In this document: positions 7,721 through 36,676 of the stretch, one piece after another
Layout of the letters: the number at the start of each line of letters is the position of its first letter
How positions within the stretch are numbered: the stretch's first letter is position 1
Notes under the pieces: generated by a model
What the model was told of the DNA's origin: nothing
The model's input: only the letters and a program-made list of their open reading frames with translations
The model's database searches: none
From: Escherichia coli
Lineage (GTDB): Bacteria > Pseudomonadota > Gammaproteobacteria > Enterobacterales > Enterobacteriaceae
NCBI RefSeq assembly: GCF_003334335.1
Contig: NZ_QOWQ01000013.1
Length of the DNA: 64,000 nt
Direction: 5' to 3' (one strand)
Translations under genes and position numbers: made by a program

Positions 7721-8635
7721 TCACTCAAAATAGTCCATATCCAGTTTCGGCACCTTCAACAAACGTGAAGAAACCCCTACTTCGTTTTCGATCATTAAGT
7801 GCACCAGGCGTTCCCCATCAACCAACACCATACCCTCAACGGATTGGGCAAAGTCACGCGCCTGAGAAGTAAATCCAGAAGTGGTAATAAACACCCCACG
7901 TTTCGCTTTTTGCCCAGCCAGTGCGCCGTAAAATGCCTGTAATTCTGGCCTGCCTACAGTATTCTGCCAACGTTTTGCCTGAACATAAACTTTCTCCAGG
8001 CCAAGTTTATCAAGCGATATCACACCATCGATGCCACCATCTCCAGTACCGCCAACACGCTGCAAATCATCACGGTGGCCGCCATACCCCAGGCGATGCA
8101 AAACATCCAGAACAATGACTTCAAAGCGCGAAGGAGAAACCTGCAATAAGTTTTCCAGAGCCTCATCAGCCACCGCATCACGAAGCTCTTTTAGCGCCTG
8201 ATCTAACCGATCGTCCGGGCTGCTCTTTGCAAGTTCTTCATGATCGGGAGAGTCGGCTTTCGGATCTAAATCGACGGCATCCGGCCGTGACTTAAGTTTG
8301 ACATTCACAAAATCGAAGGCCAGATGGTTCGTCTCCTGCTCCGTCATTGGCTGGGGATGAGACGCAACCCAGTCAAAACCCGCAGGAGTCAGGCACCATT
8401 TGCCACGCGACAAACTTTGCGACAACCCGGCACGTTTTAAACGGTCATGCGCCCAGCCTGCACGATTTTTATAAACAAGTTGTCCGCTGGTAATGACTTT
8501 CGCTCGCTGGCTGTCATCCAGTCCTAATGCATCCGCGGCAGCCTCATGAACATCACGCGCGGCTGCACCTTCCGGTTTTGTCGCCAGATAACGCAGAACA
8601 GGTTCAATAAATTTGTCATAGGTTGGAACCGTCAT
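7721..8635 (-). CDS. mrr: Mrr modification-dependent (Type IV) restriction endonuclease
   Basis: 304-aa ORF; recognised as Mrr by sequence and by position next to hsdR. Confidence 0.93.
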   Translation of the reverse strand: MTVPTYDKFIEPVLRYLATKPEGAAARDVHEAAADALGLDDSQRAKVITSGQLVYKNRAGWAHDRLKRAGLSQSLSRGKWCLTPAGFDWVASHPQPMTEQETNHLAFDFVNVKLKSRPDAVDLDPKADSPDHEELAKSSPDDRLDQALKELRDAVADEALENLLQVSPSRFEVIVLDVLHRLGYGGHRDDLQRVGGTGDGGIDGVISLDKLGLEKVYVQAKRWQNTVGRPELQAFYGALAGQKAKRGVFITTSGFTSQARDFAQSVEGMVLVDGERLVHLMIENEVGVSSRLLKVPKLDMDYFE

Positions 8636-8822
8636 AGTACATCCTTGCAGAATCAGGTAGATGTTTTTCGGCTACTATAACACTACCAAAATAGGCGAAC
8701 ACGTTAGAAATGAGTCAGTTGCTGTGACCGTGGTCATTGCCCGGAAAGGTACAGAAAGCTAAGATGAGATGTTATGGGCCTTAAATATTTGGACAGGCCC
8801 GCACAGCAATGGATTAATAACA

Positions 8823-11800
8823 ATGATGAATAAATCCAATTTTGAATTCCTGAAGGGCGTCAACGACTTCACTTATGCCATCGCCTGTGCGGCGGAAAAT
8901 AACTACCCGGATGATCCCAACACGACGCTGATTAAAATGCGTATGTTTGGCGAAGCCACAGCGAAACATCTTGGTCTGTTACTCAACATCCCCCCTTGTG
9001 AGAATCAACACGATCTCCTGCGCGAACTCGGCAAAATCGCCTTCGTTGATGACAACATCCTCTCTGTATTCCACAAATTACGCCGCATTGGTAACCAGGC
9101 GGTGCACGAATATCATAACGATCTCGACGATGCCCAGATGTGTCTGCGGCTCGGGTTCCGCCTGGCTGTCTGGTACTACCGTCTGGTCACCAAAGATTAT
9201 GACTTCCCGGTGCCGGTGTTTGTGTTGCCGGAACGTGGCAAAAACCTCTATTACCAGGAAGTGCTGACGCTAAAACAACAGCTTGAACAGCAGGCGCGAG
9301 AAAAAGCGCAGACTCAGGCAGAAGTCGAAGCGCAACAGCAGAAGCTGGTTGCCCTGAACGGCTATATCGCCATTCTGGAAGGCAAACAGCAGGAAACAGA
9401 AGCGCAAACCCAGGCTCGCCTTGCGGCGCTGGAAGCACAGCTTGCCGAGAAGAACGCGGAACTGGCAAAACAGACCGAACAGGAACGTAAGGCTTACCAC
9501 AAAGAAATTACCGATCAGGCCATCAAGCGCACACTCAACCTTAGCGAAGAAGAGAGTCGCTTCCTGATTGACGCGCAACTGCGTAAAGCAGGCTGGCAGG
9601 CCGATAGCAAAACCCTGCGCTTCTCCAAAGGCGCGCGCCCGGAACCCGGCGTCAATAAAGCCATTGCCGAATGGCCGACCGGGAAAGATGAAACGGGTAA
9701 TCAGGGCTTTGCGGATTATGTGCTGTTTGTCGGCCTCAAGCCCATCGCGGTGGTAGAGGCGAAACGTAAAAATATCGACGTTCCCGGCAAGCTCAATGAG
9801 TCGTATCGCTACAGCAAATGCTTCGATAATGGCTTCCTGCGGGAAACCTTGCTTGAGCATTACTCGCCGGATGAAGTGCATGAAGCGGTGCCGGAGTATG
9901 AAACCAGCTGGCAGGACACCAGCGGCCAACAACGGTTTAAAATCCCCTTCTGCTACTCGACCAACGGGCGCGAATACCGCGCAGCAATGAAAACTAAAAG
10001 CGGCATCTGGTATCGCGACGTGCGTGATACCCGTAATATGTCGAAAGCCTTACCCGAGTGGCATCGCCCGGAAGAGCTGCTGGAAATGCTCGGCAGTGAA
10101 CCGCAAAAACAGAATCAGTGGTTTGCCGATAACCCTGGCATGAGCGAGCTGGGCCTGCGTTATTATCAGGAAGATGCCGTCCGCGCGGTTGAAAAGGCAA
10201 TCGTCAAGGGTCAACAAGAGATCCTGCTGGCGATGGCGACCGGTACCGGTAAAACCCGTACGGCAATCGCCATGATGTTCCGCCTGATCCAGTCCCAGCG
10301 TTTTAAACGCATTCTCTTCCTTGTCGACCGCCGTTCTCTTGGCGAGCAGGCGCTGGGGGCGTTTGAAGATACGCGTATTAACGGCGACACTTTCAACAGC
10401 ATTTTCGACATTAAAGGGCTGACGGATAAATTCCCCGAAGACAGCACCAAAATTCACGTTGCCACCGTACAGTCGCTGGTGAAACGCACCCTGCAATCAG
10501 ATGAACCGATGCCGGTGGCCCGTTACGACTGTATCGTCGTCGATGAAGCGCATCGCGGCTATATTCTCGATAAAGAGCAGACCGAAGGCGAACTGCAGTT
10601 TCGCAGCCAGCTGGATTATGTCTCTGCCTACCGTCGCATTCTCGATCACTTCGATGCGGTAAAAATCGCCCTCACCGCCACCCCGGCGCTGCATACTGTG
10701 CAGATTTTCGGCGAGCCGGTTTACCGTTATACCTACCGTACCGCGGTTATCGACGGTTTTCTGATCGACCAGGATCCGCCTATTCAGATCATCACCCGCA
10801 ACGCGCAGGAGGGGGTTTATCTCTCCAAAGGCGAGCAGGTAGAGCGCATCAGCCCGCAGGGAGAAGTGATCAACGACACCCTGGAAGACGATCAGGATTT
10901 TGAGGTCGCCGACTTTAACCGTGGCCTGGTGATCCCGGCGTTTAACCGCGCCGTCTGTAACGAACTCACCAATTATCTTGACCCGACCGGGTCACAAAAA
11001 ACGCTGGTCTTCTGCGTCACTAATGCCCATGCCGATATGGTGGTGGAAGAGCTGCGTGCCGCGTTCAAGAAAAAGTATCCGCAACTGGAGCACGACGCGA
11101 TCATCAAGATCACCGGTGATGCCGATAAAGACGCGCGCAAAGTGCAGACCATGATCACCCGCTTCAATAAAGAGCGGTTGCCCAATATCGTGGTGACCGT
11201 CGACCTGCTGACGACCGGCGTCGATATTCCGTCGATCTGTAATATCGTGTTCCTGCGTAAAGTACGCAGCCGCATTCTGTACGAACAGATGAAAGGCCGC
11301 GCCACGCGCTTATGCCCGGAGGTGAATAAAACTAGCTTTAAGATTTTTGACTGTGTCGATATCTACAGCACGCTGGAGAGCGTCGACACCATGCGTCCGG
11401 TGGTGGTGCGCCCGAAGGTGGAACTGCAAACGCTGGTCAACGAAATTACCGATTCAGAAACCTATAAAATCACCGAAGCGGATGGCCGCAGTTTTGCCGA
11501 GCACAGCCATGAACAACTGGTGGCGAAGCTCCAGCGCATCATCGGCCTGGCCACGTTTAACCGTGACCGCAGCGAAACGATAGATAAACAGGTGCGTCGT
11601 CTGGATGAGCTATGCCAGGACGCGGCGGGGGTGAACTTTAACGGCTTCGCCTCGCGTCTGCGGGAAAAAGGACCGCACTGGAGCGCCGAAGTCTTTAACA
11701 AACTGCCTGGCTTTATCGCCCGTCTGGAAAAGCTGAAAACCGATATCAACAATCTGAATGATGCGCCGATCTTCCTCGATATCGACGATGAAGTGGTGAG

Positions 11801-12335
11801 TGTAAAATCGCTGTACGGTGATTACGACACACCGCAGGATTTCCTCGAAGCCTTTGACTCGCTGGTGCAACGTTCCCCGAACGCGCAACCGGCATTGCAG
11901 GCGGTGATCAATCGCCCGCGCGATCTCACCCGTAAAGGGCTGGTCGAGCTACAGGAGTGGTTTGACCGCCAGCACTTTGAGGAATCTTCCCTGCGCAAAG
12001 CATGGAAAGAGACGCGCAATGAAGATATCGCCGCCCGGCTGATTGGTCATATTCGCCGCGCTGCGGTGGGCGATGCGCTGAAACCGTTTGAGGAACGTGT
12101 CGATCACGCGCTGACGCGTATCAAGGGCGAAAACGACTGGAGCAGCGAGCAATTAAGCTGGCTCGATCGTTTAGCGCAGGCGCTGAAAGAGAAAGTGGTG
12201 CTCGACGACGATGTCTTCAAAACCGGCAACTTCCACCGTCGCGGCGGGAAGGCGATGCTGCAAAGAACCTTTGACGATAATCTCGATACCCTGCTGGGCA
12301 AATTCAGCGATTACATCTGGGACGAGCTCGCCTGA
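8823..12335 (+). CDS. hsdR: Type I restriction enzyme R subunit HsdR (EcoKI family, IA)
   Basis: ORF 8769..12335; recalled EcoKI N-terminus MMNKSNFEFLKG gives start 8823 (1170 aa); helicase motifs GTGKT and DEAH visible. Confidence 0.95.
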   Translation: MMNKSNFEFLKGVNDFTYAIACAAENNYPDDPNTTLIKMRMFGEATAKHLGLLLNIPPCENQHDLLRELGKIAFVDDNILSVFHKLRRIGNQAVHEYHNDLDDAQMCLRLGFRLAVWYYRLVTKDYDFPVPVFVLPERGKNLYYQEVLTLKQQLEQQAREKAQTQAEVEAQQQKLVALNGYIAILEGKQQETEAQTQARLAALEAQLAEKNAELAKQTEQERKAYHKEITDQAIKRTLNLSEEESRFLIDAQLRKAGWQADSKTLRFSKGARPEPGVNKAIAEWPTGKDETGNQGFADYVLFVGLKPIAVVEAKRKNIDVPGKLNESYRYSKCFDNGFLRETLLEHYSPDEVHEAVPEYETSWQDTSGQQRFKIPFCYSTNGREYRAAMKTKSGIWYRDVRDTRNMSKALPEWHRPEELLEMLGSEPQKQNQWFADNPGMSELGLRYYQEDAVRAVEKAIVKGQQEILLAMATGTGKTRTAIAMMFRLIQSQRFKRILFLVDRRSLGEQALGAFEDTRINGDTFNSIFDIKGLTDKFPEDSTKIHVATVQSLVKRTLQSDEPMPVARYDCIVVDEAHRGYILDKEQTEGELQFRSQLDYVSAYRRILDHFDAVKIALTATPALHTVQIFGEPVYRYTYRTAVIDGFLIDQDPPIQIITRNAQEGVYLSKGEQVERISPQGEVINDTLEDDQDFEVADFNRGLVIPAFNRAVCNELTNYLDPTGSQKTLVFCVTNAHADMVVEELRAAFKKKYPQLEHDAIIKITGDADKDARKVQTMITRFNKERLPNIVVTVDLLTTGVDIPSICNIVFLRKVRSRILYEQMKGRATRLCPEVNKTSFKIFDCVDIYSTLESVDTMRPVVVRPKVELQTLVNEITDSETYKITEADGRSFAEHSHEQLVAKLQRIIGLATFNRDRSETIDKQVRRLDELCQDAAGVNFNGFASRLREKGPHWSAEVFNKLPGFIARLEKLKTDINNLNDAPIFLDIDDEVVSVKSLYGDYDTPQDFLEAFDSLVQRSPNAQPALQAVINRPRDLTRKGLVELQEWFDRQHFEESSLRKAWKETRNEDIAARLIGHIRRAAVGDALKPFEERVDHALTRIKGENDWSSEQLSWLDRLAQALKEKVVLDDDVFKTGNFHRRGGKAMLQRTFDDNLDTLLGKFSDYIWDELA

Positions 12336-12366
12336 CACGGTATCATTCCCGGCAATTTCTTCTTCT

Positions 12367-12389
12367 GCGGCCCCGAACATGCGGGCCGC
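12367..12389 (+). other. GC-rich hairpin in the hsdR-hsdM intergenic region (possible hsdR terminator or Pmod element)
   Basis: gcggcccc gaacat gcgggccgc inverted repeat; no strong T-run follows. Confidence 0.35.
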
Positions 12390-12411
12390 TGCTTAATTTA
12401 CGGAACTCACA

Positions 12412-14001
12412 ATGAACAATAACGATCTGGTCGCGAAGCTGTGGAAGCTGTGCGACAACCTGCGCGATGGCGGCGTTTCCTATCAAAACTATGTCAATGA
12501 ACTCGCCTCGCTGCTGTTTTTGAAAATGTGTAAAGAGACCGGGCAGGAAGCGGAATACCTGCCGGAAGGCTACCGCTGGGATGACCTGAAATCCCGCATC
12601 GGCCAGGAGCAGTTGCAGTTCTACCGTAACCTGCTGGTACATCTGGGCGCCGACAATCAAAAGCTGGTGCAGGCGGTGTTCCAGAACGTCAACACCACCA
12701 TTACCCAGCCAAAACAGTTGACCGAACTGGTCAGCAATATGGATTCACTGGACTGGTACAACGGTGCGCACGGTAAGTCGCGCGATGACTTCGGCGATAT
12801 GTACGAAGGGTTGTTGCAGAAGAACGCGAACGAAACCAAGTCTGGCGCGGGCCAGTACTTCACCCCGCGTCCGCTGATTAAAACCATTATTCATCTGCTG
12901 AAACCGCAGCCGCGTGAAGTAGTGCAGGACCCGGCAGCAGGTACAGCGGGCTTTTTGATTGAAGCCGACCGCTACGTTAAGTCGCAAACCAATGATCTGG
13001 ACGACCTTGATGGCGACACGCAGGATTTCCAGATCCACCGCGCGTTTATCGGCCTCGAACTGGTGCCTGGCACCCGTCGTCTGGCGCTGATGAACTGCCT
13101 GCTGCACGATATTGAAGGCAACCTCGACCACGGCGGCGCAATCCGTCTGGGCAACACCCTGGGTAGCGATGGTGAAAACCTGCCAAAGGCGCATATTGTC
13201 GCCACTAACCCGCCGTTTGGCAGCGCCGCAGGCACCAACATTACCCGCACCTTTGTCCACCCGACCAGCAACAAACAGTTGTGCTTTATGCAGCATATTA
13301 TCGAAACGCTGCATCCCGGCGGTCGTGCGGCGGTGGTGGTGCCGGATAACGTGCTGTTTGAAGGCGGCAAAGGCACCGACATCCGTCGTGACCTGATGGA
13401 TAAGTGTCATCTGCACACCATTCTGCGTCTGCCGACCGGTATTTTTTACGCGCAGGGCGTGAAAACCAACGTGCTGTTCTTTACCAAAGGGACGGTGGCA
13501 AATCCGCATCAGGATAAGAACTGTACTGATGACGTGTGGGTGTATGACCTGCGGACCAATATGCCGAGCTTCGGCAAGCGCACGCCGTTTACCGACGAGC
13601 ATTTGCAGCCGTTTGAGCGCGTATATGGCGAAAACCCGCACGGCTTAAGCCCGCGCACGGAAGGGGAATGGAGTTTTAACGCCGAAGAGACGGAAGTTGC
13701 CGACAGCGAAGAGAACAAAAATACCGATCAGCATCTGGCTACCAGCCGCTGGCGCAAGTTCAGCCGCGAGTGGATCCGCACCGCGAAATCCGATTCGCTG
13801 GATATCTCCTGGTTAAAAGATAAAGACAGTATTGATGCTGACAGCCTGCCGGAGCCGGATGTATTAACGGCAGAAGCGATGGGCGAGCTGGTACAGGCAT
13901 TGGGTGAACTGGATGCGCTGATGCGTGAACTGGGGGCGAGCGATGAGGCGGATGCGCAGCGTCAATTGCTGGAAGAAGCGTTTGGTGGGGTGAAGGAATG
14001 A
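12412..14001 (+). CDS. hsdM: Type I RM N6-adenine DNA methyltransferase subunit HsdM
   Basis: 529-aa ORF; NPPF catalytic motif (ATNPPFGSAAG) and AdoMet-binding region; 4-nt ATGA overlap with hsdS. Confidence 0.95.
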   Translation: MNNNDLVAKLWKLCDNLRDGGVSYQNYVNELASLLFLKMCKETGQEAEYLPEGYRWDDLKSRIGQEQLQFYRNLLVHLGADNQKLVQAVFQNVNTTITQPKQLTELVSNMDSLDWYNGAHGKSRDDFGDMYEGLLQKNANETKSGAGQYFTPRPLIKTIIHLLKPQPREVVQDPAAGTAGFLIEADRYVKSQTNDLDDLDGDTQDFQIHRAFIGLELVPGTRRLALMNCLLHDIEGNLDHGGAIRLGNTLGSDGENLPKAHIVATNPPFGSAAGTNITRTFVHPTSNKQLCFMQHIIETLHPGGRAAVVVPDNVLFEGGKGTDIRRDLMDKCHLHTILRLPTGIFYAQGVKTNVLFFTKGTVANPHQDKNCTDDVWVYDLRTNMPSFGKRTPFTDEHLQPFERVYGENPHGLSPRTEGEWSFNAEETEVADSEENKNTDQHLATSRWRKFSREWIRTAKSDSLDISWLKDKDSIDADSLPEPDVLTAEAMGELVQALGELDALMRELGASDEADAQRQLLEEAFGGVKE

Positions 14002-15347
14002 GTGCGGGGAAATTGCCGGAGGGGTGGGTTGAAACCTACCTTTCTGAAATATGTAGTAAACCACAATATGGTTATACAACTAAGTCGAGCTTTACAGGTA
14101 ATGTAAAATTTTTAAGAACTACAGATATTACTAAAGGTACTGTGGATTGGTCCACTGTACCTTATTGTTTGCAAAATCCTGATGATATACTTAAATATCA
14201 GCTTCAAGATCGAGATATTGTTATATCCCGGGCTGGTTCCGTAGGTTTTAGTTTTTTAGTAAAAAACCCACCGAATAATGCTGTCTTTGCTTCGTACCTG
14301 ATCAGATTCAAACCTTTTGATAATATTTCAGAGCTTTACTTGAAGCGTTTTTTAGAGTCCGGCAACTATTGGGTTCAGCTTGCCTCTATGTCGGCTGGAA
14401 ATGCATTACAAAATGTAAATGCTCAAAAATTATCCACGCTTATAGTACCAATTCCTCCACTTGCCGAACAAAAAATCATCGCTGAAAAACTCGATACGCT
14501 GCTGGCGCAGGTAGAGAGCACCAAAGCACGTCTTGAGCAAATCCCACAAATCCTGAAACGTTTTCGTCAGGCGGTGCTATCTAGTGCTGTTAGCGGTAAG
14601 TTAATTGACAAAAGCTTCGAAAATAAATTAGAAAAGCTCAATTCGTTTGTATCTATAGATATTGGTAATGCGTTCAAAAGCTCAGAGTTTAGTGATGAAG
14701 GCGTTCCATTACTCCGAGGACAAAATATAGAACCCGGAGCATTACGTTGGGATGACACAAAAAAATTCCCAATAGATAAACTTCAAAAATATTCTCATTT
14801 ATTTATTAATGAGGGCGATATTATATTAGCAATGGATCGCCCAATAATATCAAGCGGGTTAAAAATAGCTAAAGCCAAAAAAAGTGATCTTCCTTGCGTT
14901 CTGGTTCAACGAGTTGCCAGATTTAAAGATTTCGAAAATCTAATTCCTGACTATCTGTATTTGTTATTGAATGATGTGTCTTTTATTAATTATATTCAAC
15001 CAAATCAGACTGGTAGCGACATTCCGCATATCAGTGGAAAACAAATTTTAAACTTTGAGTGTAATGTCCCCTCTATCCCCGAACAACGCGAAATCGTTCG
15101 CCGCGTCGAGCAACTCTTCGCCTACGCCGACACTATAGAAAAACAGGTTAACAACGCCTTAGCCCGCGTCAACAACCTGACGCAATCCATCCTGGCAAAA
15201 GCGTTCCGTGGTGAGCTCACCGCCCAGTGGCGGGCCGAAAACCCGGAATTAATCAGCGGAGAAAACAGCGCCGCCGCGTTGCTGGAGAAAATCAAAGCTG
15301 AATGCGCAGCCAGCGGGGGTAAAAAAGCCTCGAGTAAAAAATCCTGA
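13998..15347 (+). CDS. hsdS: Type I RM specificity subunit HsdS (family IA conserved regions, distinct target-recognition domains)
   Basis: 449-aa ORF; N-terminus MSAGKLPEGW as in the EcoKI family; two AT-rich variable TRDs (about 14040-14460 and 14570-15070) separated by conserved LAEQKIIAEKLD...; conserved C-terminal IPEQREIV... Confidence 0.9.
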   Translation: MSAGKLPEGWVETYLSEICSKPQYGYTTKSSFTGNVKFLRTTDITKGTVDWSTVPYCLQNPDDILKYQLQDRDIVISRAGSVGFSFLVKNPPNNAVFASYLIRFKPFDNISELYLKRFLESGNYWVQLASMSAGNALQNVNAQKLSTLIVPIPPLAEQKIIAEKLDTLLAQVESTKARLEQIPQILKRFRQAVLSSAVSGKLIDKSFENKLEKLNSFVSIDIGNAFKSSEFSDEGVPLLRGQNIEPGALRWDDTKKFPIDKLQKYSHLFINEGDIILAMDRPIISSGLKIAKAKKSDLPCVLVQRVARFKDFENLIPDYLYLLLNDVSFINYIQPNQTGSDIPHISGKQILNFECNVPSIPEQREIVRRVEQLFAYADTIEKQVNNALARVNNLTQSILAKAFRGELTAQWRAENPELISGENSAAALLEKIKAECAASGGKKASSKKS

Positions 15348-15360
15348 TCATTATTTTCTG

Positions 15361-15386
15361 GCGCACCTTTCCGGTGCGCTTTTTAT
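15361..15386 (+). terminator. Rho-independent terminator after hsdS
   Basis: gcgcacc tttcc ggtgcgc stem-loop followed by tttttatt. Confidence 0.7.
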
Positions 15387-15481
15387 TATTTTACACCAAT
15401 CATAACCCACACAAATATATTTAAATCATTCCAGAAATTGCCTATTTTATTCTATTTTTAGCTGGACTTTCCCTGTATTTA

Positions 15482-15497
15482 CTGATGATATATCCAG
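15482..15497 (+). promoter_or_regulatory. Candidate LexA (SOS) box upstream of symE
   Basis: CTG-atgatatatc-CAG fits the CTG-N10-CAG SOS-box core with AT-rich spacer, about 80 bp upstream of the symE start. Confidence 0.45.
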
Positions 15498-15539
15498 GTA
15501 TTTAGCGCGGTGCGGATGTGCGCCAACACACCCGCACCG

Positions 15540-15620
15540 CTAATCACAATCACTATTTATAGGGAATAGCAGTTATGACTGACACGCATTCTATTGCACA
15601 ACCGTTCGAAGCAGAAGTCT
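15540..15620 (-). ncRNA. symR: SymR antisense sRNA (type I antitoxin) overlapping the symE 5' end; coordinates approximate
   Basis: Inferred from the known symE/symR arrangement; exact ends cannot be set from sequence alone. Confidence 0.3.
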
Positions 15621-15916
15621 CCCCGGCAAATAACCGTCAATTAACCGTGAGTTATGCGAGTCGCTACCCGGATTACAGCCGTATTCCCGCCATCACCCTG
15701 AAAGGTCAGTGGCTGGAAACCGCCGGTTTTGCTACCGGCACGGCGGTAGATGTCAAAGTGATGGAAGGCTGTATTGTCCTCACCGCCCAACCACCTGCCG
15801 CCGAAGAGAGCGAACTGATGCAGTCACTGCGCCAGGTGTGCAAACTGTCGGCGCGTAAACAAAAGCAGGTGCAGGAATTTATTGAGGTGATTGCCGGTAA
15901 ACGAAAAGTCGCCTGA
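15575..15916 (+). CDS. symE: SymE SOS-induced toxin-like protein (AbrB/MazE fold, RNA cleavage)
   Basis: 113-aa [37 protein letters not shown]... recognised as SymE. Confidence 0.9.
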
Positions 15917-15962: not shown

Positions 15963-18056
15963 TTATACCAACGCGCTCTCCATCTGTTTTTCAAATGCCT
16001 GACGGATTAATCCCATAATGTAAGGAAGTTGTGCGAGGTCGCTGAAACCAATTTCTACATCGCCATTGCCCCAGCGCCCAACATTTGTCACATCTTTGGC
16101 AATACCTTTCGGATCGACCAGTTCATGAAACTGCATATTAAGCGACAATCGCAGTCGGCTTTTTTGCGGCACAACATCAACAAAGTTCGTTTCCGCTTTA
16201 AACGCAATATAGAGCTTCAATACTTCCTGCGTGATCCCTGCGTCCAGGCGCATAACTTCATCGCGAAGATGATCGAATAACTCCCGACTATGCGAACCAT
16301 CAGCAAGAAAAGGAAAATCATTCAGGCTGTAATTGGTTTTGTTTTCAGGCTTCCCCCGATAAACAGCTAAAACCTCTTCAGGAAGAGCAGGCGCTTGCCA
16401 GACCTGAATTGCAAGCTCTGCCAGACGATCGGCTCGGGCGTGAATGGCGGCTTCATCCCATTTTTCGCACTGTCCAAGACCGATATTCAAATAGAGCGGG
16501 CTATGTTTAAAGCCGTCTTCAATATCGCGTTTTTCCGCGAAAGGTCTGTCACTGTAGCGGGAGTTATAGCGCGTTAATGTGAGATTCCCCAACGTATGCA
16601 ACAGTTCTTTATGAATGCGTTGCCAGTCACTTCCCAGCTCTTCACGCCATTTAGCCGACAAATTTTCGTTCTGCGGCATAATATGTTCAATCGTAAACTC
16701 TTCCACGCGCTCTCTGCGTTTATCGTTTTCCAGTCGTCGTAACCAGTAACTGCGACTGCGGAAGTTATAGAGATCGCGAACTTTTAATTCCCGTTTAAAT
16801 TCATCATCGTTGGGGAAACGACGATATGAAGGTAGATTCAGAAAATGTACCTGAATACTTTCCAGATAATTTTCTTTATTAATGACCTTATAAAAAGTAG
16901 CAAACGTCTTGTTAAGAGAATTTGTCGGAATCGCACATACTGCACGGCGGAAAACATAAGATTCAATTAAACGAATTATGTTCAGGAAATCTTCTTGAGA
17001 CAAAACGCCATTTTTATAGTCATGATAAAGCGCCAGTAAGAAAGGATACGCCACATCGACCTTTAACTCGCGCAAATCCTGAAAAGCCGTAGCAAGCGAT
17101 TTGTCACTTTCTTTTCCCAATGCCATTGCACAGTAATACTCCGCGTAGATGTGAATATCTTCAACCAGCCGATCTACGCCTTTTTCAGCAACACTCTGGC
17201 TGCGGGCATGGAGTTTAAATGCCTCATAGACTTCATCTGTCCGAGGGATCTCCCCTGTTTTTACCGTCAGATAATGACGCATAAAACTGTCAAAATATTC
17301 GCTGTAACCTTGCTGACCAAACGCGACTTCCATTGGACGCCAGTGATCTTCATACAACCGGGTTTGATGCTCTGGTTCGAGGCCCATCAGAATAAAATTG
17401 CGCACCAGATCGGCCTGACTTAACGCCTTACCGGTGGAGTTCATACTTTCAAAAATCAGTTGCGGATTATCCTGACCACGATTAAGCGCCACATCGACAA
17501 TTAATAATTTTGCTAACCCACGACATAAGGGAATCAAATCATCCCCGAGTTTGGCAATTTGTTCATCAAAGAAAGTAAAGTTTTCCATTATTCGATGGGA
17601 ATAGTTTTCTGGCATTGGTCTTTGTTTTATTAACGCCAGCAAACTGTCTTTATCAGTCTCGGTCAGCAGTAATTTAAATCCTTTCTCGCCGGACTCATAA
17701 GGATTGAGTAAATAATAATTACGCAATTTCATTGCTGAAAAGCCATCAAAAACTTCGTCTTCGCCAAGATGACGCGATAAAGCCTCAATCAGCAACATTG
17801 CGGTCGTCAGCCTTTGTTGACCATCAATGACCAGTAACGGAGAAATACCAGAAACCTGATACAACCCCTGCTCAATATAAACAACCGAACCGATAAAATG
17901 CGCTGATATATCGTCACGCTTTCCGGCACGAATGATGTCGTCCCAAAGTTGCCGACATTGTTGTTCTGTCCATGAATAAGTCCGTTGATAAATGGGAATA
18001 ACAAACTGCTGCGAACGTTTTAAAAAATCGAGTAGGCGGGCTTCTGTAGCTTTCAT
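15963..18056 (-). CDS. DUF262 (ParB-like NTPase) + DUF1524 (HNH/His-Me finger) fusion protein; GmrSD-like putative Type IV modification-dependent restriction endonuclease
   Basis: 697-aa ORF; N-terminal DGQQR motif (LVIDGQQRLTT) typical of DUF262; C-terminal region with EHIMPQN...LGNLTL His-Me finger-like motif typical of DUF1524; extra about 140-aa C-terminal extension; sits where mcrBC lies in K-12. Confidence 0.75.
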   Translation of the reverse strand: MKATEARLLDFLKRSQQFVIPIYQRTYSWTEQQCRQLWDDIIRAGKRDDISAHFIGSVVYIEQGLYQVSGISPLLVIDGQQRLTTAMLLIEALSRHLGEDEVFDGFSAMKLRNYYLLNPYESGEKGFKLLLTETDKDSLLALIKQRPMPENYSHRIMENFTFFDEQIAKLGDDLIPLCRGLAKLLIVDVALNRGQDNPQLIFESMNSTGKALSQADLVRNFILMGLEPEHQTRLYEDHWRPMEVAFGQQGYSEYFDSFMRHYLTVKTGEIPRTDEVYEAFKLHARSQSVAEKGVDRLVEDIHIYAEYYCAMALGKESDKSLATAFQDLRELKVDVAYPFLLALYHDYKNGVLSQEDFLNIIRLIESYVFRRAVCAIPTNSLNKTFATFYKVINKENYLESIQVHFLNLPSYRRFPNDDEFKRELKVRDLYNFRSRSYWLRRLENDKRRERVEEFTIEHIMPQNENLSAKWREELGSDWQRIHKELLHTLGNLTLTRYNSRYSDRPFAEKRDIEDGFKHSPLYLNIGLGQCEKWDEAAIHARADRLAELAIQVWQAPALPEEVLAVYRGKPENKTNYSLNDFPFLADGSHSRELFDHLRDEVMRLDAGITQEVLKLYIAFKAETNFVDVVPQKSRLRLSLNMQFHELVDPKGIAKDVTNVGRWGNGDVEIGFSDLAQLPYIMGLIRQAFEKQMESALV

Positions 18057-31435: not shown

Positions 31436-34400
31436 ATGGCTTCAACAAATGCGCATCAAATAAAAAATAATGATCAAAACTCTTTATGTGGTCTGGGTGA
31501 CAAAATACGCCGCCTGACCGCCGGAGTTTGTTTATTTACACAAATTTTTTTCCCCGTCATGGCGACGGCACAAAATGTGGTACACGCTAAGCCTCAGACG
31601 ACAGTTTCATCTCCGTCCCCTCTAATAGAAAATAATACTGTGCCTTACACGCTTGGTGCGCTGGAATCAGCGCAAAGCGTTGCTGATCGATTCGGTATTT
31701 CACTGGAGGAGCTTCGTCGTCTTAATCAGTTCCGTACTTTTGCTCGCGGCTTTGATAACGTGCGCCAGGGTGAAGAGCTGGATGTTCCGGCAACAACCTT
31801 GCAGAAAAGTCATGAGCAACAAAATGCCGTACCGCCTGCGAATGGCGAAAACACGCTGGAGAATCAAATAGCCAGCACTTCGCAGCGAGTTGGCACCCTG
31901 CTTTCACAAGATATGAATAGTGAGCAGGCCAGCGGCATGGCGCGTGGTTGGGCGTCTTCAGAAGCCTCAGGCGCGATGACTGATTGGTTAAATAACTTTG
32001 GCACTGCGAAAATCTCTCTGGGTGTGGATGAAGATTTCAGCCTGAAAAATTCGCAATTCGACTTCCTGCATCCGTGGTATGACACACCCGATTATCTGCT
32101 CTTCAGCCAGCATACCCTTCACCGAACAGACGATCGTACCCAGATCAACACCGGTTTGGGCTGGCGTCATTTCACCCCCAGCTGGATGTCAGGCATCAAC
32201 CTGTTTTTTGACCACGACCTGAGCCGCTATCACTCCCGCGCGGGGCTTGGCGCAGAATACTGGCGTGATTATCTGAAGTTGAGCAGCAACGCTTATATCG
32301 GCCTGACCGGCTGGCGTAGCGCACCGGAATTGGATAATGACTACGAAGCCCGCCCGGCCAACGGCTGGGATTTACGCGCGGAAGGCTGGTTACCAGCCTG
32401 GCCACAACTGGGTGGAAAACTGGTCTATGAACAATACTATGGTGATGAAGTGGCGCTGTTTGACAAGAATGATCGCCAAAGTAATCCCCATGCTATTACC
32501 GCGGGCCTCAACTATACCCCCTTCCCGCTTCTGACTCTCAGTGCAGAACAGCGTCAGGGGAAGCAAGGTGAAAATGACACACGTTTTGCCGTTGATCTGA
32601 CCTGGCAACCCAGCAGTTCAATGCAGAAACAGCTTAACCCGGACGAAGTGGCCGGACGGCGCAGTCTGGCCGGTAGTCGTTATGACCTGATTGATCGCAA
32701 CAACAACATCGTTCTGGAATATCGCAAGAAAGAGCTGATTCGCCTGAGTCTGCTGGATCCGGTGAAAGGAAAGTCTGGAGAAATAAAACCGCTGGTTTCC
32801 TCGATACAGACCAAATATGCCCTGAAAGGCTATAACATCGAAGCCGCTGCGCTGGAAGCTGCCGGAGGTAAAGTCAGCACGTCTGGAAAAGATATCACGG
32901 TCACGCTGCCAGGTTACCGCTTCACTAACACTCCAGAAACCGATAATACATGGTCGATAGACGTTACCGCCGAGGATGTAAAAGGGAACCTGTCACGTCA
33001 TGAACAAAGCATGGTCGTCATTCAGGCTCCGACATTAAGCCAGAAAGATTCTCTGTTATCCGTTAATCCGCTAACCGTAGCTGCAGATAAAAAATCGACG
33101 ACCACATTGACCGTTACTGCGCACGATTCCGACGGAACTCCGGTGCCGGGGCTGGCGCTGCAAACCCGCAGTGAAGGCGTTCAGGATATCACCCTGTCTG
33201 ACTGGACAGATAACGGTGATGGTAGTTACACACAGATGCTGACCGCCGGAACGACATCAGGTTCAGTAACACTGACGCCGCAAATTAACGGTGAGAGTGC
33301 GGTAAAAGAATCCATTGTCGTTAATATCGTCCCTGTTGTCTCATCCCGCGACCATTCATCAATAACAATAGATAACGTATCGTATTATGCCGGAGACGAC
33401 ATCAAGGTTAGGGTGGAACTGAAAGACGACAGCAATCAACCGGTTGCATATCAAAAAGAGGAATTGGTAAAAGCCGTTACTGTCGAAAACAGCAAACCTG
33501 GCGCCACGATTGTCTGGCACGAAGAGCAGCCTGGCGTTTATACCGCGAATTATCCGGCCCATAAGCAAGGGACAGCACTAAGGGCACAACTTAGCCTTCA
33601 CAACTGGAATGCTCCACTGCAATCGCATATTTATAACATTGAGGCAAACCAGAATAAGGCTCGCGTCGCCACATTATCAGCGACGAATAATGACGTTTAC
33701 GCCGATAAAAAGACATTTAATACCCTCACGATCAACATCACTGATGAGAGTGATAATCCCCTGACAAATCATCAGGTCACCTTTAAGAATGAAAAAGGAA
33801 GCGCGGAGTTTGTCGAACCGCCGCAGCAAAATACGGATGCATATGGTGTTGCCACAATCAACATGGTAAGTCAGGTTGCGGAAGAAAATACGATTAGCGC
33901 CACGCTGCCAAATGGTTTCTCACAACGGATAATTGCGAAATTCGTTAGCGATTCGAGTACGCCAAAATTCAAACAACTGGTTGCCGATCCAGATACCATT
34001 ATTGCTGGCAACAGCCAGGGCAGTACTCTGACCGCCACCGTCACAGACTTTCATAACAACCCATTAAAAGATATGAAAGTGAATTTTGTGGCACCTGGTG
34101 GTTCGCAACTGGACAACACGACCGCCACAACAGACCAGTCCGGTATTGTGCGAGTGCACCTGACCAGTTCAAAAGCTGGTAGCTATTCCGTCGATGCCTC
34201 GCTTGAGGCGGATAAAAATATTCACCAGTCGGTCACGATCACCGTGGTCCCAAACAGGGAACAATCGGTAATGACCTTAAATGCCGGGTCAGGCAGTGCG
34301 ATCGCTAACAATACAAATACCGTTATCCTGACAGCCAGTGTGAAAGATGTTTATGGACACCCGTTGCCGGATGAGGATGTGAAATTTACCTTGCTAGCCT

Positions 34401-36676
34401 CTATGACCGGGAACTTCACGCTAAGTAGTGAAAGCGCCCGCACCGATGCAAACGGCGATGCCGTGGTCACATTGCGTGGCACAAAAGCGGGTGAGTTTAC
34501 AGTTACGGCGACGCTGACCAGAAATAATACCGTTGCTCATCAGCAAGTCACTTTTATTGGGGATACAAACAGCGCGCAGCTCCAGCCGCTGACTGCCTCA
34601 TTAAATACCATTGTTGCGGGTAACAGTACGGGGAGTACCCTGACTGCAACGATCCTGGACGCTTACCAAAATCCGCTTAAAGACCAGCTGGTCACTTTCC
34701 AGAGTAACGATGTCACTCTAAGTGGAACAGAAGTCACCACCAATACACTGGGTCAGGCGACGGTAACAATGACCAGCAATATTGCCGGGCAACATAACGT
34801 CGTGGTGAGCCGGAAAGCGCAAGCCTCCGATAATAAAACGTTTAGTTTATCAGTGCTGCCGGATGAAAGTTCGGCGAAGGTAATAAGTATAACCGGAGCC
34901 GAAAAAACGATAACGGTTGGCGAAAACATCACGCTACGGATACTCGTCCAGGACGCGTTTAACAATGTAATAGCGGGTCAACGCGTCAGATTAAGTGCGC
35001 AGCCAACAGCTAACATTACGATAGGCGATACGGCTTACACTGATAATAACGGTTACGCGTACGTTAACCTTCTCAGCACCCAGCCTGGGGTTTATCAGGT
35101 GACGGCAACGCTGGACAATAACAGTAGTAGTAAGGTTGACGTGAATGTGGCAAATGGCAAGCTCGAGTTAACATCATCGAAGCCAGAAACCACGGTCCAT
35201 AACAGTGAAGGTATTACGCTGACCGCAACGGCGAGAAATGCTCGGGATGAATTAATGCCTGGACAAATTATCACCTTTAGCGTAACGCCTGAAGGTGCAA
35301 CGCTAAGCAATACAGGGGAAGTCCTTACTGACCAGTATGGTCAGGCCAAAGTGACGCTGACCAGTGACAAAGTGAATGTCTATACCGTTACGGCCACAAT
35401 GGGCAAAGATGTTCCCGTTCAGAGCCAGGTAACGGTTGCGGTTAAGGCAGATGCTAAAACGGCACATGTTGTGAGCGTCGTGGCCTCTCCTGACACCATC
35501 ACCGCCGACGGCGTTGATAGCAGCACCATCACTTCACGAGTAGAAGATGATTACGGATTCCCGGTTGAAGGTGTCGATGTTCGTTACGCCTTAGACACCA
35601 AAGGTCGCCCGGTAGTTAATATTCCAACTACGCGTACCGATCAGTCCGGGCAAGTCACGGCGACAATAACCAGTACATTGGCAGAAACCTTAACGGTCAA
35701 TGTGCAAGTTCCTGGTACAGCCAACCAATCCGCAACCATTACCTTGATTGCCGACACGGCGGATGAAAGTAAGTCAATTTTGAAATCCGACGTTGGCACT
35801 CTGATGGCTGACTACCAGCATAGCGCGAAACTTACGCTAACATTGCAAGACAAGTACGGTAACCCGATAGTGACGTCTGATCATCTGGAATTTGTCCAGT
35901 CAGGTCCCTTCGTGAACTTTCTCAAGTTGAGTGATATTGATTACAGCCAAAGAAATTATGGCGAGTACACCGTGACTGTCACTGGCGGAAAAGAGGGAAC
36001 AGCGACTCTCATTCCCATGCTGAACGGGGTTCATCAGGCAAACTTAAGCGTATCGCTGAATCTCATCCGCTCGATAAAAGAAATGTCCGGTCATGTCACT
36101 GCAAACAACCATACCTTCTCCACGGCTAAATTCCCGAGCGAAGGTTTTGCAGGAGCGTATTACACACTCAACAATGATAACTTTGAAGCGGGTAAAACCG
36201 TTGATGATTATATGTTTTCAAGTTCACAGAGTTGGGTGTCGGTCGATGCTTCAGGTAAGGTTTCTTTCGCAAATATCGGCGATCAAACGTCAGTCACAAT
36301 AAGCGCTGTTCCCCGACAAGGAGGTACAACCTACCAGACCTTAATTAAGCTGAAAGGCTGGTGGGTAAATAATGGAAATCAAACCAATATTTGGCTAGCT
36401 GCCAATGCGCTCTGTCATGCGAAAAATGATGGATATAATCTTCCTGGCATCACACATTTGACGTCTGGCGAAAACCAACGCACGCAGGGATCTCTCTATG
36501 GTGAATGGGGGAACGTTGGAGCGTTTTCCAGTAATTCGCAATTTACACAAGGTGCTTACTGGACAAATGAATCTGATGATTACAATAGGCATTACTATGT
36601 GCAGATGCTAACCGGTATGACCGGAAGCGACGCTGATTCCAGCCCCCAACTGACCGCCTGCCGTAAATCACTTTAA
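31436..36676 (+). CDS. Inverse autotransporter adhesin of the intimin/invasin family (LysM, beta-barrel, multiple Big domains, C-terminal lectin-like domain)
   Basis: 1746-aa ORF; N-terminal LysM-like YTLGALESAQSVADRFGISLEELRRLNQF; intimin-type beta-domain (GLGWRHF...AEYW...GLNYTP); many Ig-like repeats of about 95-100 aa (TLTATV, VTVTAT patterns); Cys-containing C-terminal domain. Confidence 0.8.
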   Translation: MASTNAHQIKNNDQNSLCGLGDKIRRLTAGVCLFTQIFFPVMATAQNVVHAKPQTTVSSPSPLIENNTVPYTLGALESAQSVADRFGISLEELRRLNQFRTFARGFDNVRQGEELDVPATTLQKSHEQQNAVPPANGENTLENQIASTSQRVGTLLSQDMNSEQASGMARGWASSEASGAMTDWLNNFGTAKISLGVDEDFSLKNSQFDFLHPWYDTPDYLLFSQHTLHRTDDRTQINTGLGWRHFTPSWMSGINLFFDHDLSRYHSRAGLGAEYWRDYLKLSSNAYIGLTGWRSAPELDNDYEARPANGWDLRAEGWLPAWPQLGGKLVYEQYYGDEVALFDKNDRQSNPHAITAGLNYTPFPLLTLSAEQRQGKQGENDTRFAVDLTWQPSSSMQKQLNPDEVAGRRSLAGSRYDLIDRNNNIVLEYRKKELIRLSLLDPVKGKSGEIKPLVSSIQTKYALKGYNIEAAALEAAGGKVSTSGKDITVTLPGYRFTNTPETDNTWSIDVTAEDVKGNLSRHEQSMVVIQAPTLSQKDSLLSVNPLTVAADKKSTTTLTVTAHDSDGTPVPGLALQTRSEGVQDITLSDWTDNGDGSYTQMLTAGTTSGSVTLTPQINGESAVKESIVVNIVPVVSSRDHSSITIDNVSYYAGDDIKVRVELKDDSNQPVAYQKEELVKAVTVENSKPGATIVWHEEQPGVYTANYPAHKQGTALRAQLSLHNWNAPLQSHIYNIEANQNKARVATLSATNNDVYADKKTFNTLTINITDESDNPLTNHQVTFKNEKGSAEFVEPPQQNTDAYGVATINMVSQVAEENTISATLPNGFSQRIIAKFVSDSSTPKFKQLVADPDTIIAGNSQGSTLTATVTDFHNNPLKDMKVNFVAPGGSQLDNTTATTDQSGIVRVHLTSSKAGSYSVDASLEADKNIHQSVTITVVPNREQSVMTLNAGSGSAIANNTNTVILTASVKDVYGHPLPDEDVKFTLLASMTGNFTLSSESARTDANGDAVVTLRGTKAGEFTVTATLTRNNTVAHQQVTFIGDTNSAQLQPLTASLNTIVAGNSTGSTLTATILDAYQNPLKDQLVTFQSNDVTLSGTEVTTNTLGQATVTMTSNIAGQHNVVVSRKAQASDNKTFSLSVLPDESSAKVISITGAEKTITVGENITLRILVQDAFNNVIAGQRVRLSAQPTANITIGDTAYTDNNGYAYVNLLSTQPGVYQVTATLDNNSSSKVDVNVANGKLELTSSKPETTVHNSEGITLTATARNARDELMPGQIITFSVTPEGATLSNTGEVLTDQYGQAKVTLTSDKVNVYTVTATMGKDVPVQSQVTVAVKADAKTAHVVSVVASPDTITADGVDSSTITSRVEDDYGFPVEGVDVRYALDTKGRPVVNIPTTRTDQSGQVTATITSTLAETLTVNVQVPGTANQSATITLIADTADESKSILKSDVGTLMADYQHSAKLTLTLQDKYGNPIVTSDHLEFVQSGPFVNFLKLSDIDYSQRNYGEYTVTVTGGKEGTATLIPMLNGVHQANLSVSLNLIRSIKEMSGHVTANNHTFSTAKFPSEGFAGAYYTLNNDNFEAGKTVDDYMFSSSQSWVSVDASGKVSFANIGDQTSVTISAVPRQGGTTYQTLIKLKGWWVNNGNQTNIWLAANALCHAKNDGYNLPGITHLTSGENQRTQGSLYGEWGNVGAFSSNSQFTQGAYWTNESDDYNRHYYVQMLTGMTGSDADSSPQLTACRKSL

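Follow-up and report, generated by a model that had tools for sequence, protein, structure and literature searches.

The hsd locus described here raises the question of whether an intact Type I restriction-modification system, built on the framework of EcoKI, recognises a target other than that of EcoKI. The locus lies in the window, that is, the whole stretch of 64,000 nucleotides of Escherichia coli DNA that was analysed. A sequence-only reading had noted that the specificity subunit HsdS appeared to keep the conserved regions of EcoKI around two different target-recognition domains (TRDs). The locus is chromosomal and situated in the immigration control region beside mrr, with the gene order mrr-hsdR-hsdM-hsdS-symE. 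The following features were identified:

7721-8635, minus strand: mrr, Type IV restriction gene beside the locus (PADLOC mREase_IV, E=2e-172)
8823-12335, plus strand: hsdR, Type IA restriction/translocase subunit, 1170 aa from the K-12 start (99% identical to EcoKI HsdR)
12412-14001, plus strand: hsdM, m6A methyltransferase subunit, 529 aa (97% identical to EcoKI HsdM)
13998-15347, plus strand: hsdS, specificity subunit, 449 aa (ORF, Pfam, NCBIfam and PADLOC)
15360-15390, plus strand: terminator-like hairpin and T-run directly past hsdS (consensus match only)
15504-15580, minus strand: symR, antisense to symE (Rfam RF01809, 94 bits)
15575-15916, plus strand: symE, downstream flank (NCBIfam SymE, 229 bits)

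The same chromosomal locus, mrr-hsdR-hsdM-hsdS-symE, houses EcoKI (Type IA, AAC N6 GTGC) in E. coli K-12, and the mrr genes of the window and K-12 share 99.5% DNA identity. All three hsd ORFs are full length. HsdR matched its EcoKI counterpart at 1161 of 1170 residues and HsdM at 514 of 529, and neither contains internal stops. The catalytic motifs of both subunits are all in place: the helicase and nuclease motifs of HsdR (Walker A ATGTGKT at 472, DEAH at 574, and D298...EAK) and the AdoMet-binding and NPPF motifs of HsdM (DPAAGTAGF at 173 and NPPF at 266). The hsdM stop and the hsdS start overlap in ATGA, as they do in K-12. Past hsdS, the hairpin reads GGCGCACC-TTTCC-GGTGCGC, followed by TTTTATTATT, again as a consensus match only. 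The hsdR ORF can also run further upstream, to an ATG at 8769. Two features distinguish the surroundings from those of K-12, which carries an element of ~127 bp between hsdR and hsdM and has mcrBC downstream; the window has neither, and an intact GmrSD-type gene occupies the position of mcrBC.

The HsdS protein was divided into conserved and variable segments as follows:

13998-14027, plus strand: conserved N-terminus, aa 1-10, MSAGKLPEGW (10/10 identical to EcoKI; G+C 0.63)
14028-14447, plus strand: TRD1, aa 11-150, predicted to read the 5' half-site (21% identical to EcoKI TRD1, 17% to EcoBI; G+C 0.35)
14448-14606, plus strand: central conserved region, aa 151-203, first helix of the coiled coil, where crossovers usually fall (89% identical to EcoKI)
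14607-15065, plus strand: TRD2, aa 204-356, predicted to read the 3' half-site (24% identical to EcoKI TRD2, 20% to EcoBI; G+C 0.33)
15066-15347, plus strand: C-terminal conserved region, aa 357-449 and stop, second coiled-coil helix and tail (91% identical to EcoKI)

By these sequence comparisons, the window hsdS belongs to a Type IA (EcoKI-family) restriction-modification system. The level of identity makes it very likely that subunits of EcoKI would complement those of the window genetically or share antibody reactivity with them. Two Methylase_S domains were detected by Pfam (residues 7-183 and 213-388), and PADLOC classified the protein as Specificity_I (E=6e-137). In the AF2 model (pLDDT 82), the segments follow the order TRD-helix-TRD-helix, with two long helices predicted at 155-199 and 360-403, and the best fold match in the PDB is the EcoKI S subunit (2y7c). 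The sequence-only reading had given a length of about 464 aa for EcoKI HsdS against 449 aa here, and both figures were borne out (b4348 and the ORF, respectively), as was its view that the EcoKI framework is kept. The framework segments are 89–100% identical to those of EcoKI and equal in length, and the central and C-terminal regions align without indels. Between the framework segments, however, both TRDs have been replaced, with many indels and an identity that makes them unrelated to those of EcoKI beyond a shared fold, so that overall identity falls to 45%. The refuting outcome named beforehand, TRDs identical to those of EcoKI, was thus looked for by alignment and not found. On the NCBIfam model PRK09737, HsdS scored 558 bits, under the curated equivalog cut-off of 662, as is expected with divergent TRDs.

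The earlier reading had also pointed to the AT-richness of the TRDs. This was correct as a description, since both are far lower in G+C than hsdM (0.56) and hsdR (0.54), but it failed as a distinguishing cue. The EcoKI TRDs are equally low in G+C (0.35 and 0.34), so AT-richness is family-wide and does not set the window allele apart; for the same reason, it was rejected as a mark of recent foreign origin.

Among the characterised Type IA alleles compared (EcoKI, EcoBI and UTI89), TRD-level identity reached 32% at best. In the case of EcoBI (E. coli B, TGA N8 TGCT), the central and C-terminal regions are 87% and 91% identical to those of the window, the latter without indels, whereas the TRDs diverge as listed above and the N-terminus is different and longer. 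The EcoUTI89I/Eco646I group (UTI89, CCA N7 CTTC) shows the same pattern, in that its HsdM and HsdR are nearly identical and its HsdS is divergent; this HsdS is 43% identical overall to that of the window. UTI89 shares the locus variant of the window, with a GmrSD-type gene adjoining symE, although this gene is split in UTI89 and intact in the window. The 32% match, between UTI89 TRD2 and window TRD1, is the sole TRD-level resemblance and is too low for half-site transfer. A plasmid-borne Type IC system of the EcoR124 family was also considered and rejected, as the window locus is chromosomal and its TRDs have no close copies on enterobacterial plasmids. In tblastn searches of each TRD against plasmids, the best matches reached 42–48% identity and came from other phyla, and EcoR124I HsdS gave no match by sequence to the window HsdS.

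The target of a Type IA enzyme is set by its TRDs alone. Within this family, different TRDs pair with different targets (PMC3874165, Table 1; PMC8287963), and exchanging TRDs yields predictable hybrid specificities (PMC3874165). In UTI89, whose HsdS is 45.4% identical to that of EcoKI, exchanging hsdS alone changed the specificity of methylation and of restriction alike (PMC8287963). Since the window shares neither TRD with EcoKI, EcoBI or UTI89, the target should be other than AAC(N6)GTGC. The earlier prediction of a Type I system with non-EcoKI recognition is therefore supported by inference, from unrelated TRDs combined with near-identical HsdM and HsdR. The methyltransferase would consist of one HsdS and two HsdM, to which two HsdR would be added to form the ATP-dependent restriction enzyme. 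Each globular TRD (aa 11-150 and 204-356) would recognise one half-site of a bipartite target, and the two conserved helices (~155-199 and 360-403) would act as a coiled-coil spacer and dock HsdM. The enzyme is thus predicted to m6A-methylate and restrict at a bipartite site different from that of EcoKI. Because the helices have the same length as in EcoKI, the methylated adenines should sit 8 bp apart; Loenen's Table 1 gives a methylation interval of 8 for every Type IA enzyme it includes (PMC3874165).

The distribution of the allele suggests how it may have arisen. The exact HsdS protein is already public under a generic annotation and was found on 24 E. coli contigs, and a 98–99% identical variant with the same TRD pair occurs on 301 contigs in E. 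coli and also in E. marmotae. Among 5426 complete E. coli genomes, TRD1 was present in 7 and TRD2 in 2, and the pair, with 2 occurrences, is rare. At ~78–80% identity, the same pair was observed in Klebsiella and Salmonella. Its conservation at these two levels speaks for a functional protein maintained by selection. A close relative, the WP_044705744.1-type allele, is found in E. coli (23AR0806, on NZ_CP195434.1, and OZ547223.1) and in E. marmotae; it has the same length and locus position as the window allele, is 99% identical in amino acids in each TRD, and differs by 11 aa, mainly in the conserved framework. In that strain, unlike in the window, mcrBC lies downstream and the intergenic element is present upstream. 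Against an E. marmotae-type locus, the TRDs are 98–99.6% identical, while symE and gmrSD reach only ~90%.

The two TRDs are also found apart. TRD1 recurs at 100% identity in alleles of E. albertii and E. coli, where its partners include at least 7 further TRD2s; TRD2 recurs at 99–100% identity next to 8 or more different TRD1s. In the allele of strain 1105, DNA homology to the window stops at 14604, at the end of the central region. Each TRD occurring with several partners is the classic TRD shuffling of the EcoKI family. A protein search with TRD1 only retrieved short or partial proteins of at most 250 aa from diverse phyla at 40–80% identity, none of them characterised; these matches indicate merely that the TRD1 type is widespread. 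We propose that the allele arose by the shuffling typical of the family, through the conserved regions, and has moved among Escherichia species. A precedent is provided by the StySQ and StySJ hybrids of Salmonella Type IA systems, in which a crossover in the central region re-paired the TRDs and so gave rise to another bipartite specificity (PMC3874165). Unlike the window allele, these hybrids came from known parents and were constructed or observed in laboratory work. Taken as a whole, we consider it highly probable that the window encodes an intact Type IA system in which both TRDs have been swapped by shuffling, with a non-EcoKI specificity and an 8-bp interval.

This reading assumes that hsdMS is expressed, and the system could instead be silent or defective, for example if promoter sequence was lost along with the intergenic element or if substitutions inactivated the enzyme, and hsd-dependent methylation would then be absent. 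The hsdR-hsdM spacer, at 12336-12411, is only 76 bp long, lacking the ~127-bp insertion of K-12, and a simple scan of it gave no match to a sigma-70 consensus promoter. Such scans are insensitive, however, and the final ~70 bp 5' of hsdM are kept as in K-12. Full-length ORFs with intact catalytic motifs, an identical locus in many independent assemblies, and an HsdS conserved at 98–99% over lineages and species further make a silent system improbable. It is less probable still that the different TRDs converge on the target of EcoKI, or of another classical enzyme, and leave the methylation pattern unchanged. Unrelated-looking TRDs do occasionally share a half-site in general, and nothing in the present data points that way; both TRDs would have to converge together despite their low identity to EcoKI and many indels, and different Type IA TRDs go with different targets, as cited above. 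The exchange of EcoKI-family TRDs between strains, clear as it is, might also suggest a phase-variable or shufflon-type hsdS that switches TRDs inside a strain. We regard this as the most remote of the alternatives, given that hsdS contains neither inverted repeats nor simple-sequence tracts, that the locus has one hsdS only and no recombinase gene, and that it is identical among independent assemblies.

A different matter is whether the predicted target is new. It is quite conceivable that the allele is active and that its recognition sequence is already catalogued, for instance from PacBio data in REBASE, or readable from assigned half-sites, in which case nothing new would be specified. Public assemblies with the protein or its 98% variant are numerous, two complete genomes among them, and both TRDs recur in many other alleles from E. 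albertii, E. coli and Salmonella. Any of these may have been SMRT-sequenced. The names and literature point the other way. All clusters containing the allele or sharers of one TRD carry generic names ("restriction endonuclease subunit S") and no enzyme name. In a search confined to the full-text literature, neither TRD could be linked to a characterised enzyme or to a published methylome. Publications on the carriers 23AR0806, 1105, MS1170, MS1266 and VTB97074v tie no motif to the TRDs, and the methylome literature on E. coli, Salmonella, E. albertii and E. marmotae assigns none to either; the E. coli pan-methylome paper leaves out Type I motifs, and the Salmonella paper concerns other serovars. 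EcoDI was considered as the identity of the 443/444-aa alleles that share TRD2, but this was unsupported, as these alleles occur in raw-read assemblies only and have no UniProt name. With these points side by side, we hold it close to an even call, and propose only tentatively, that the TRD pair specifies a target unassigned to any Type I enzyme and that this pair is long-lived and was passed between E. coli and E. marmotae in the very recent past.

The window system is an intact but ordinary Type IA variant and not a new kind of system, and the allele leaves the understanding of Type I systems unchanged. Within the immigration control region, it is a further case in which TRDs have been shuffled as modules and exchanged across species. 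If the predicted specificity is true, carriers of the allele would bear a distinct set of m6A marks and would restrict DNA from most other E. coli, K-12, B and UTI89-type strains among them; this would be relevant to transforming or conjugating DNA into these strains and to the interpretation of their methylomes. If the new target and the recent crossing are also true, the allele would be a useful marker for restriction barriers among Escherichia species.

In the E. coli immigration control region, hsdS codes for the specificity subunit of a Type IA (EcoKI-family) system that appears intact; the gene layout is as follows.

Features of the hsd locus and its neighbours
7721-8635, minus strand (opposite to hsdS): mrr-like gene (ORF list)
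8769-12335, plus strand: hsdR ORF, 1188 aa, upstream of hsdS on the same strand (ORF list)
12412-14001, plus strand: hsdM ORF, 529 aa, upstream of hsdS on the same strand (ORF list)
13998-15347, plus strand: hsdS, ATG start, 449 aa, N-terminus MSAGKLPEGW (ORF list)
15360-15390: hairpin and T-run, 3' of hsdS
15504-15580, minus strand: symR antisense RNA (Rfam RF01809, 94 bits), overlapping the 5' end of symE
15575-15916, plus strand: symE, downstream of hsdS
15963-18056, minus strand: intact GmrSD-family gene, 697 aa (PF03235 GmrSD_N, PF07510 GmrSD_C, DUF5655)

The hsdR, hsdM and hsdS ORFs contain no internal stops. HsdM carries the DPAAGTAGF and NPPF motifs, while Walker A, DEAH and D...EAK nuclease motifs are present in HsdR. 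The hsdM stop and hsdS start overlap (ATGA) as in K-12, where symR likewise overlaps the 5' end of symE. The hsdR frame is open for 18 codons 5' of the K-12 start (8769-8822), with an ATG at 8769 and the K-12-equivalent start at 8823; the 1170-aa form of HsdR is the gene callers' choice on identical loci. The GmrSD-family gene, which also matches the PADLOC Orf5, HEC-06 and Type IV REase models, adjoins symE, a position occupied by mcrBC in K-12, E. coli B and strain 23AR0806. Both the window and E. marmotae-type loci carry it intact, whereas in UTI89 and NY1601 it is split or truncated. The window also has a very long ORF (31436-36676, plus strand; 1746 aa) downstream of the yji genes.

Two Methylase_S domains were detected with Pfam (aa 7-183 and 213-388), and the top PADLOC model was the Type I specificity subunit (E=6e-137). 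The NCBIfam EcoKI-type equivalog spans the protein end to end with 558 bits, under the curated cut-off of 662, as expected because the target-recognition domains (TRDs) differ. Among sequences with a solved structure, the EcoKI S subunit (2y7c, E=6e-91) is nearest. The AlphaFold2 model (mean pLDDT 82) predicts two globular domains and, separating them, two long helices (155-199 and 360-403); its top PDB fold matches are 2y7c, 1yf2, 3okg, 5ybb and the S subunit of the PacII methyltransferase-DNA complex.

By BLASTP against EcoKI, HsdM is identical at 514/529 positions and HsdR at 1161/1170, and the overall identity of HsdS is 45%. Segment identities were obtained from a three-way HsdS alignment of the window, EcoKI (b4348, K-12 MG1655 region) and EcoBI (E. 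coli B REL606), in which the conserved segments contain no indels.

Identity of window HsdS segments to EcoKI and EcoBI
N-terminus, aa 1-10: EcoKI 10/10; EcoBI 3/10
TRD1, aa 11-150: EcoKI 21%; EcoBI 17%
Central region, aa 151-203: EcoKI 89%; EcoBI 87%
TRD2, aa 204-356: EcoKI 24%; EcoBI 20%
C-terminal region, aa 357-449: EcoKI 91%; EcoBI 91%

All factual points of the sequence-only reading hold. It had described a 449-aa HsdS beginning MSAGKLPEGW, which the ORF list bears out, and had given about 464 aa for EcoKI, the exact length of b4348. Its view that the EcoKI-like central and C-terminal regions are kept, with both TRDs unlike those of EcoKI, agrees with the identities listed. It had also pointed to AT-rich TRDs. 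Their G+C is indeed low (0.35 for TRD1 and 0.33 for TRD2, versus 0.56 for hsdM and 0.54 for hsdR), but since the EcoKI TRDs are equally low (0.35 and 0.34; whole EcoBI hsdS, 0.40), this is a trait of the family and does not mark the allele.

A Type I enzyme reads its bipartite target through the two TRDs of a single S subunit. Its two M subunits methylate one adenine per half-site, its two R subunits translocate and cleave unmodified DNA, and crossing-over within the conserved helices joins TRDs in new pairs, with hybrid specificities that can be predicted (PMC3874165). For the Type IA system of UTI89, with hsdM and hsdR 99% and hsdS 45.4% identical to K-12, swapping hsdS alone switched methylation and restriction specificity (PMC8287963). 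The window shows the same pattern, with hsdM and hsdR near-identical to K-12 and hsdS at about 45%. From this pattern, the divergent TRDs and the Type I precedents, we infer, in support of the earlier interpretation, a Type I system in which HsdS would direct methylation to a bipartite m6A target other than that of EcoKI. The conserved helices are equal in length to those of EcoKI, EcoBI and UTI89 despite the N6, N8 and N7 spacers of these enzymes, so the framework cannot predict the number of Ns. All Type IA enzymes in Loenen's Table 1 (PMC3874165) share a methylation interval of 8, which would also be predicted for the window enzyme.

Against three characterised Type IA alleles (EcoKI, EcoBI and UTI89), TRD identity ranges from 17% to 32%, with window TRD1 and UTI89 TRD2 the closest pair (32%). 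Convergence on EcoKI specificity is effectively excluded by TRD identities this low to EcoKI. It is plausible, though we lean slightly against it, that the specificity is already catalogued in REBASE; no enzyme name was found on any protein cluster containing TRD1 or TRD2, and full-text literature searches returned no methylome for carrier strains or the relevant species. A phase-variable hsdS is also effectively excluded, as neither inverted repeats nor repeat tracts were found in the gene, and neither a second hsdS nor a recombinase in the locus.

The system may be silent, but this is unlikely. Between hsdR and hsdM, the spacer is short (76 bp, 12336-12411), is without the ~127-bp element of K-12 and 23AR0806, and gave no promoter in a consensus scan; however, the ~70 bp nearest hsdM show conservation, all three ORFs are intact, and HsdS is conserved across lineages and species. 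In K-12 and 23AR0806, the element sits just 3' of the hsdR stop, and its core (…CACCCCGGTCACGTACTTCTGTACGCTCCCGGGGATTCAC…) looks like a candidate ERIC/IRU repeat.

Of the 5426 complete E. coli genomes, 926 have a match to part of hsdS, corresponding to the family framework. The whole gene was found in only 2 (strain 23AR0806, OZ547223.1; 98.1% DNA identity), where the protein is WP_044705744.1, identical at 438/449 positions. Even at blastn sensitivity, TRD1 DNA was present in 7 and TRD2 DNA in 2 of these genomes, and a plasmid search with each TRD found no close copy. The exact 449-aa protein is already in a large protein collection (e.g., EGE1607866.1), solely as "restriction endonuclease subunit S"; 24 E. 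coli contigs encoding it were read, and the index places it in 60 blocks of the collection. The loci shown with it share the window layout, including GCA_012531195.1, which is 100% identical across 13.35 kb. Some exact-allele assemblies (loci L007/L008, 7525-9282) carry an ISL3-family transposase and a DUF1706 gene between hsdS and symE, an insertion absent from the window. A 98% variant occurs on 301 contigs, and further 98% variants are annotated as E. marmotae.

The modular pattern was scored segment by segment on the 120 best HsdS matches. Among these, TRD1 at 99-100% is paired with at least seven different TRD2s, for example in E. albertii alleles of 451 aa and E. coli alleles of 447, 448, 460, 466, 488, 492 and 502 aa, and TRD2 at 99-100% with eight or more different TRD1s (alleles of 427-485 aa). 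In Klebsiella pasteurii/michiganensis and Salmonella, the framework also contains the same TRD1 and TRD2 pair as the window, each TRD being ~78-80% identical.

Host background was compared over two intervals. The best match among the 5426 complete E. coli genomes was 98.8% for 40000-64000 (core genome: fim, uxu, gntP and nan genes) and 97.5% for 5-29 kb, so no complete RefSeq genome is closely related to the host lineage; an identical hsd locus does occur in draft assemblies. Compared at the DNA level with an E. marmotae-type locus, hsdS is far more similar (TRD1 98.2%, central region 98.7%, TRD2 99.6%) than symE (90.4%) or gmrSD (90.6%), which indicates that hsdS was exchanged recently between species. 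Relative to the other E. coli loci compared, mrr is 98.7-99.8%, hsdR 97-98% and hsdM 94.4-96.7% identical. The hsd locus has a known history of recombination in the older population-genetic literature, and the hsdM divergence fits it. Judged from these comparisons, the 12412-15916 region is a mosaic shaped by recombination, including exchange across species. Its HsdS allele, rare in E. coli and shared with E. marmotae, has a modular origin and a publicly available sequence, and belongs to a very well-understood family.
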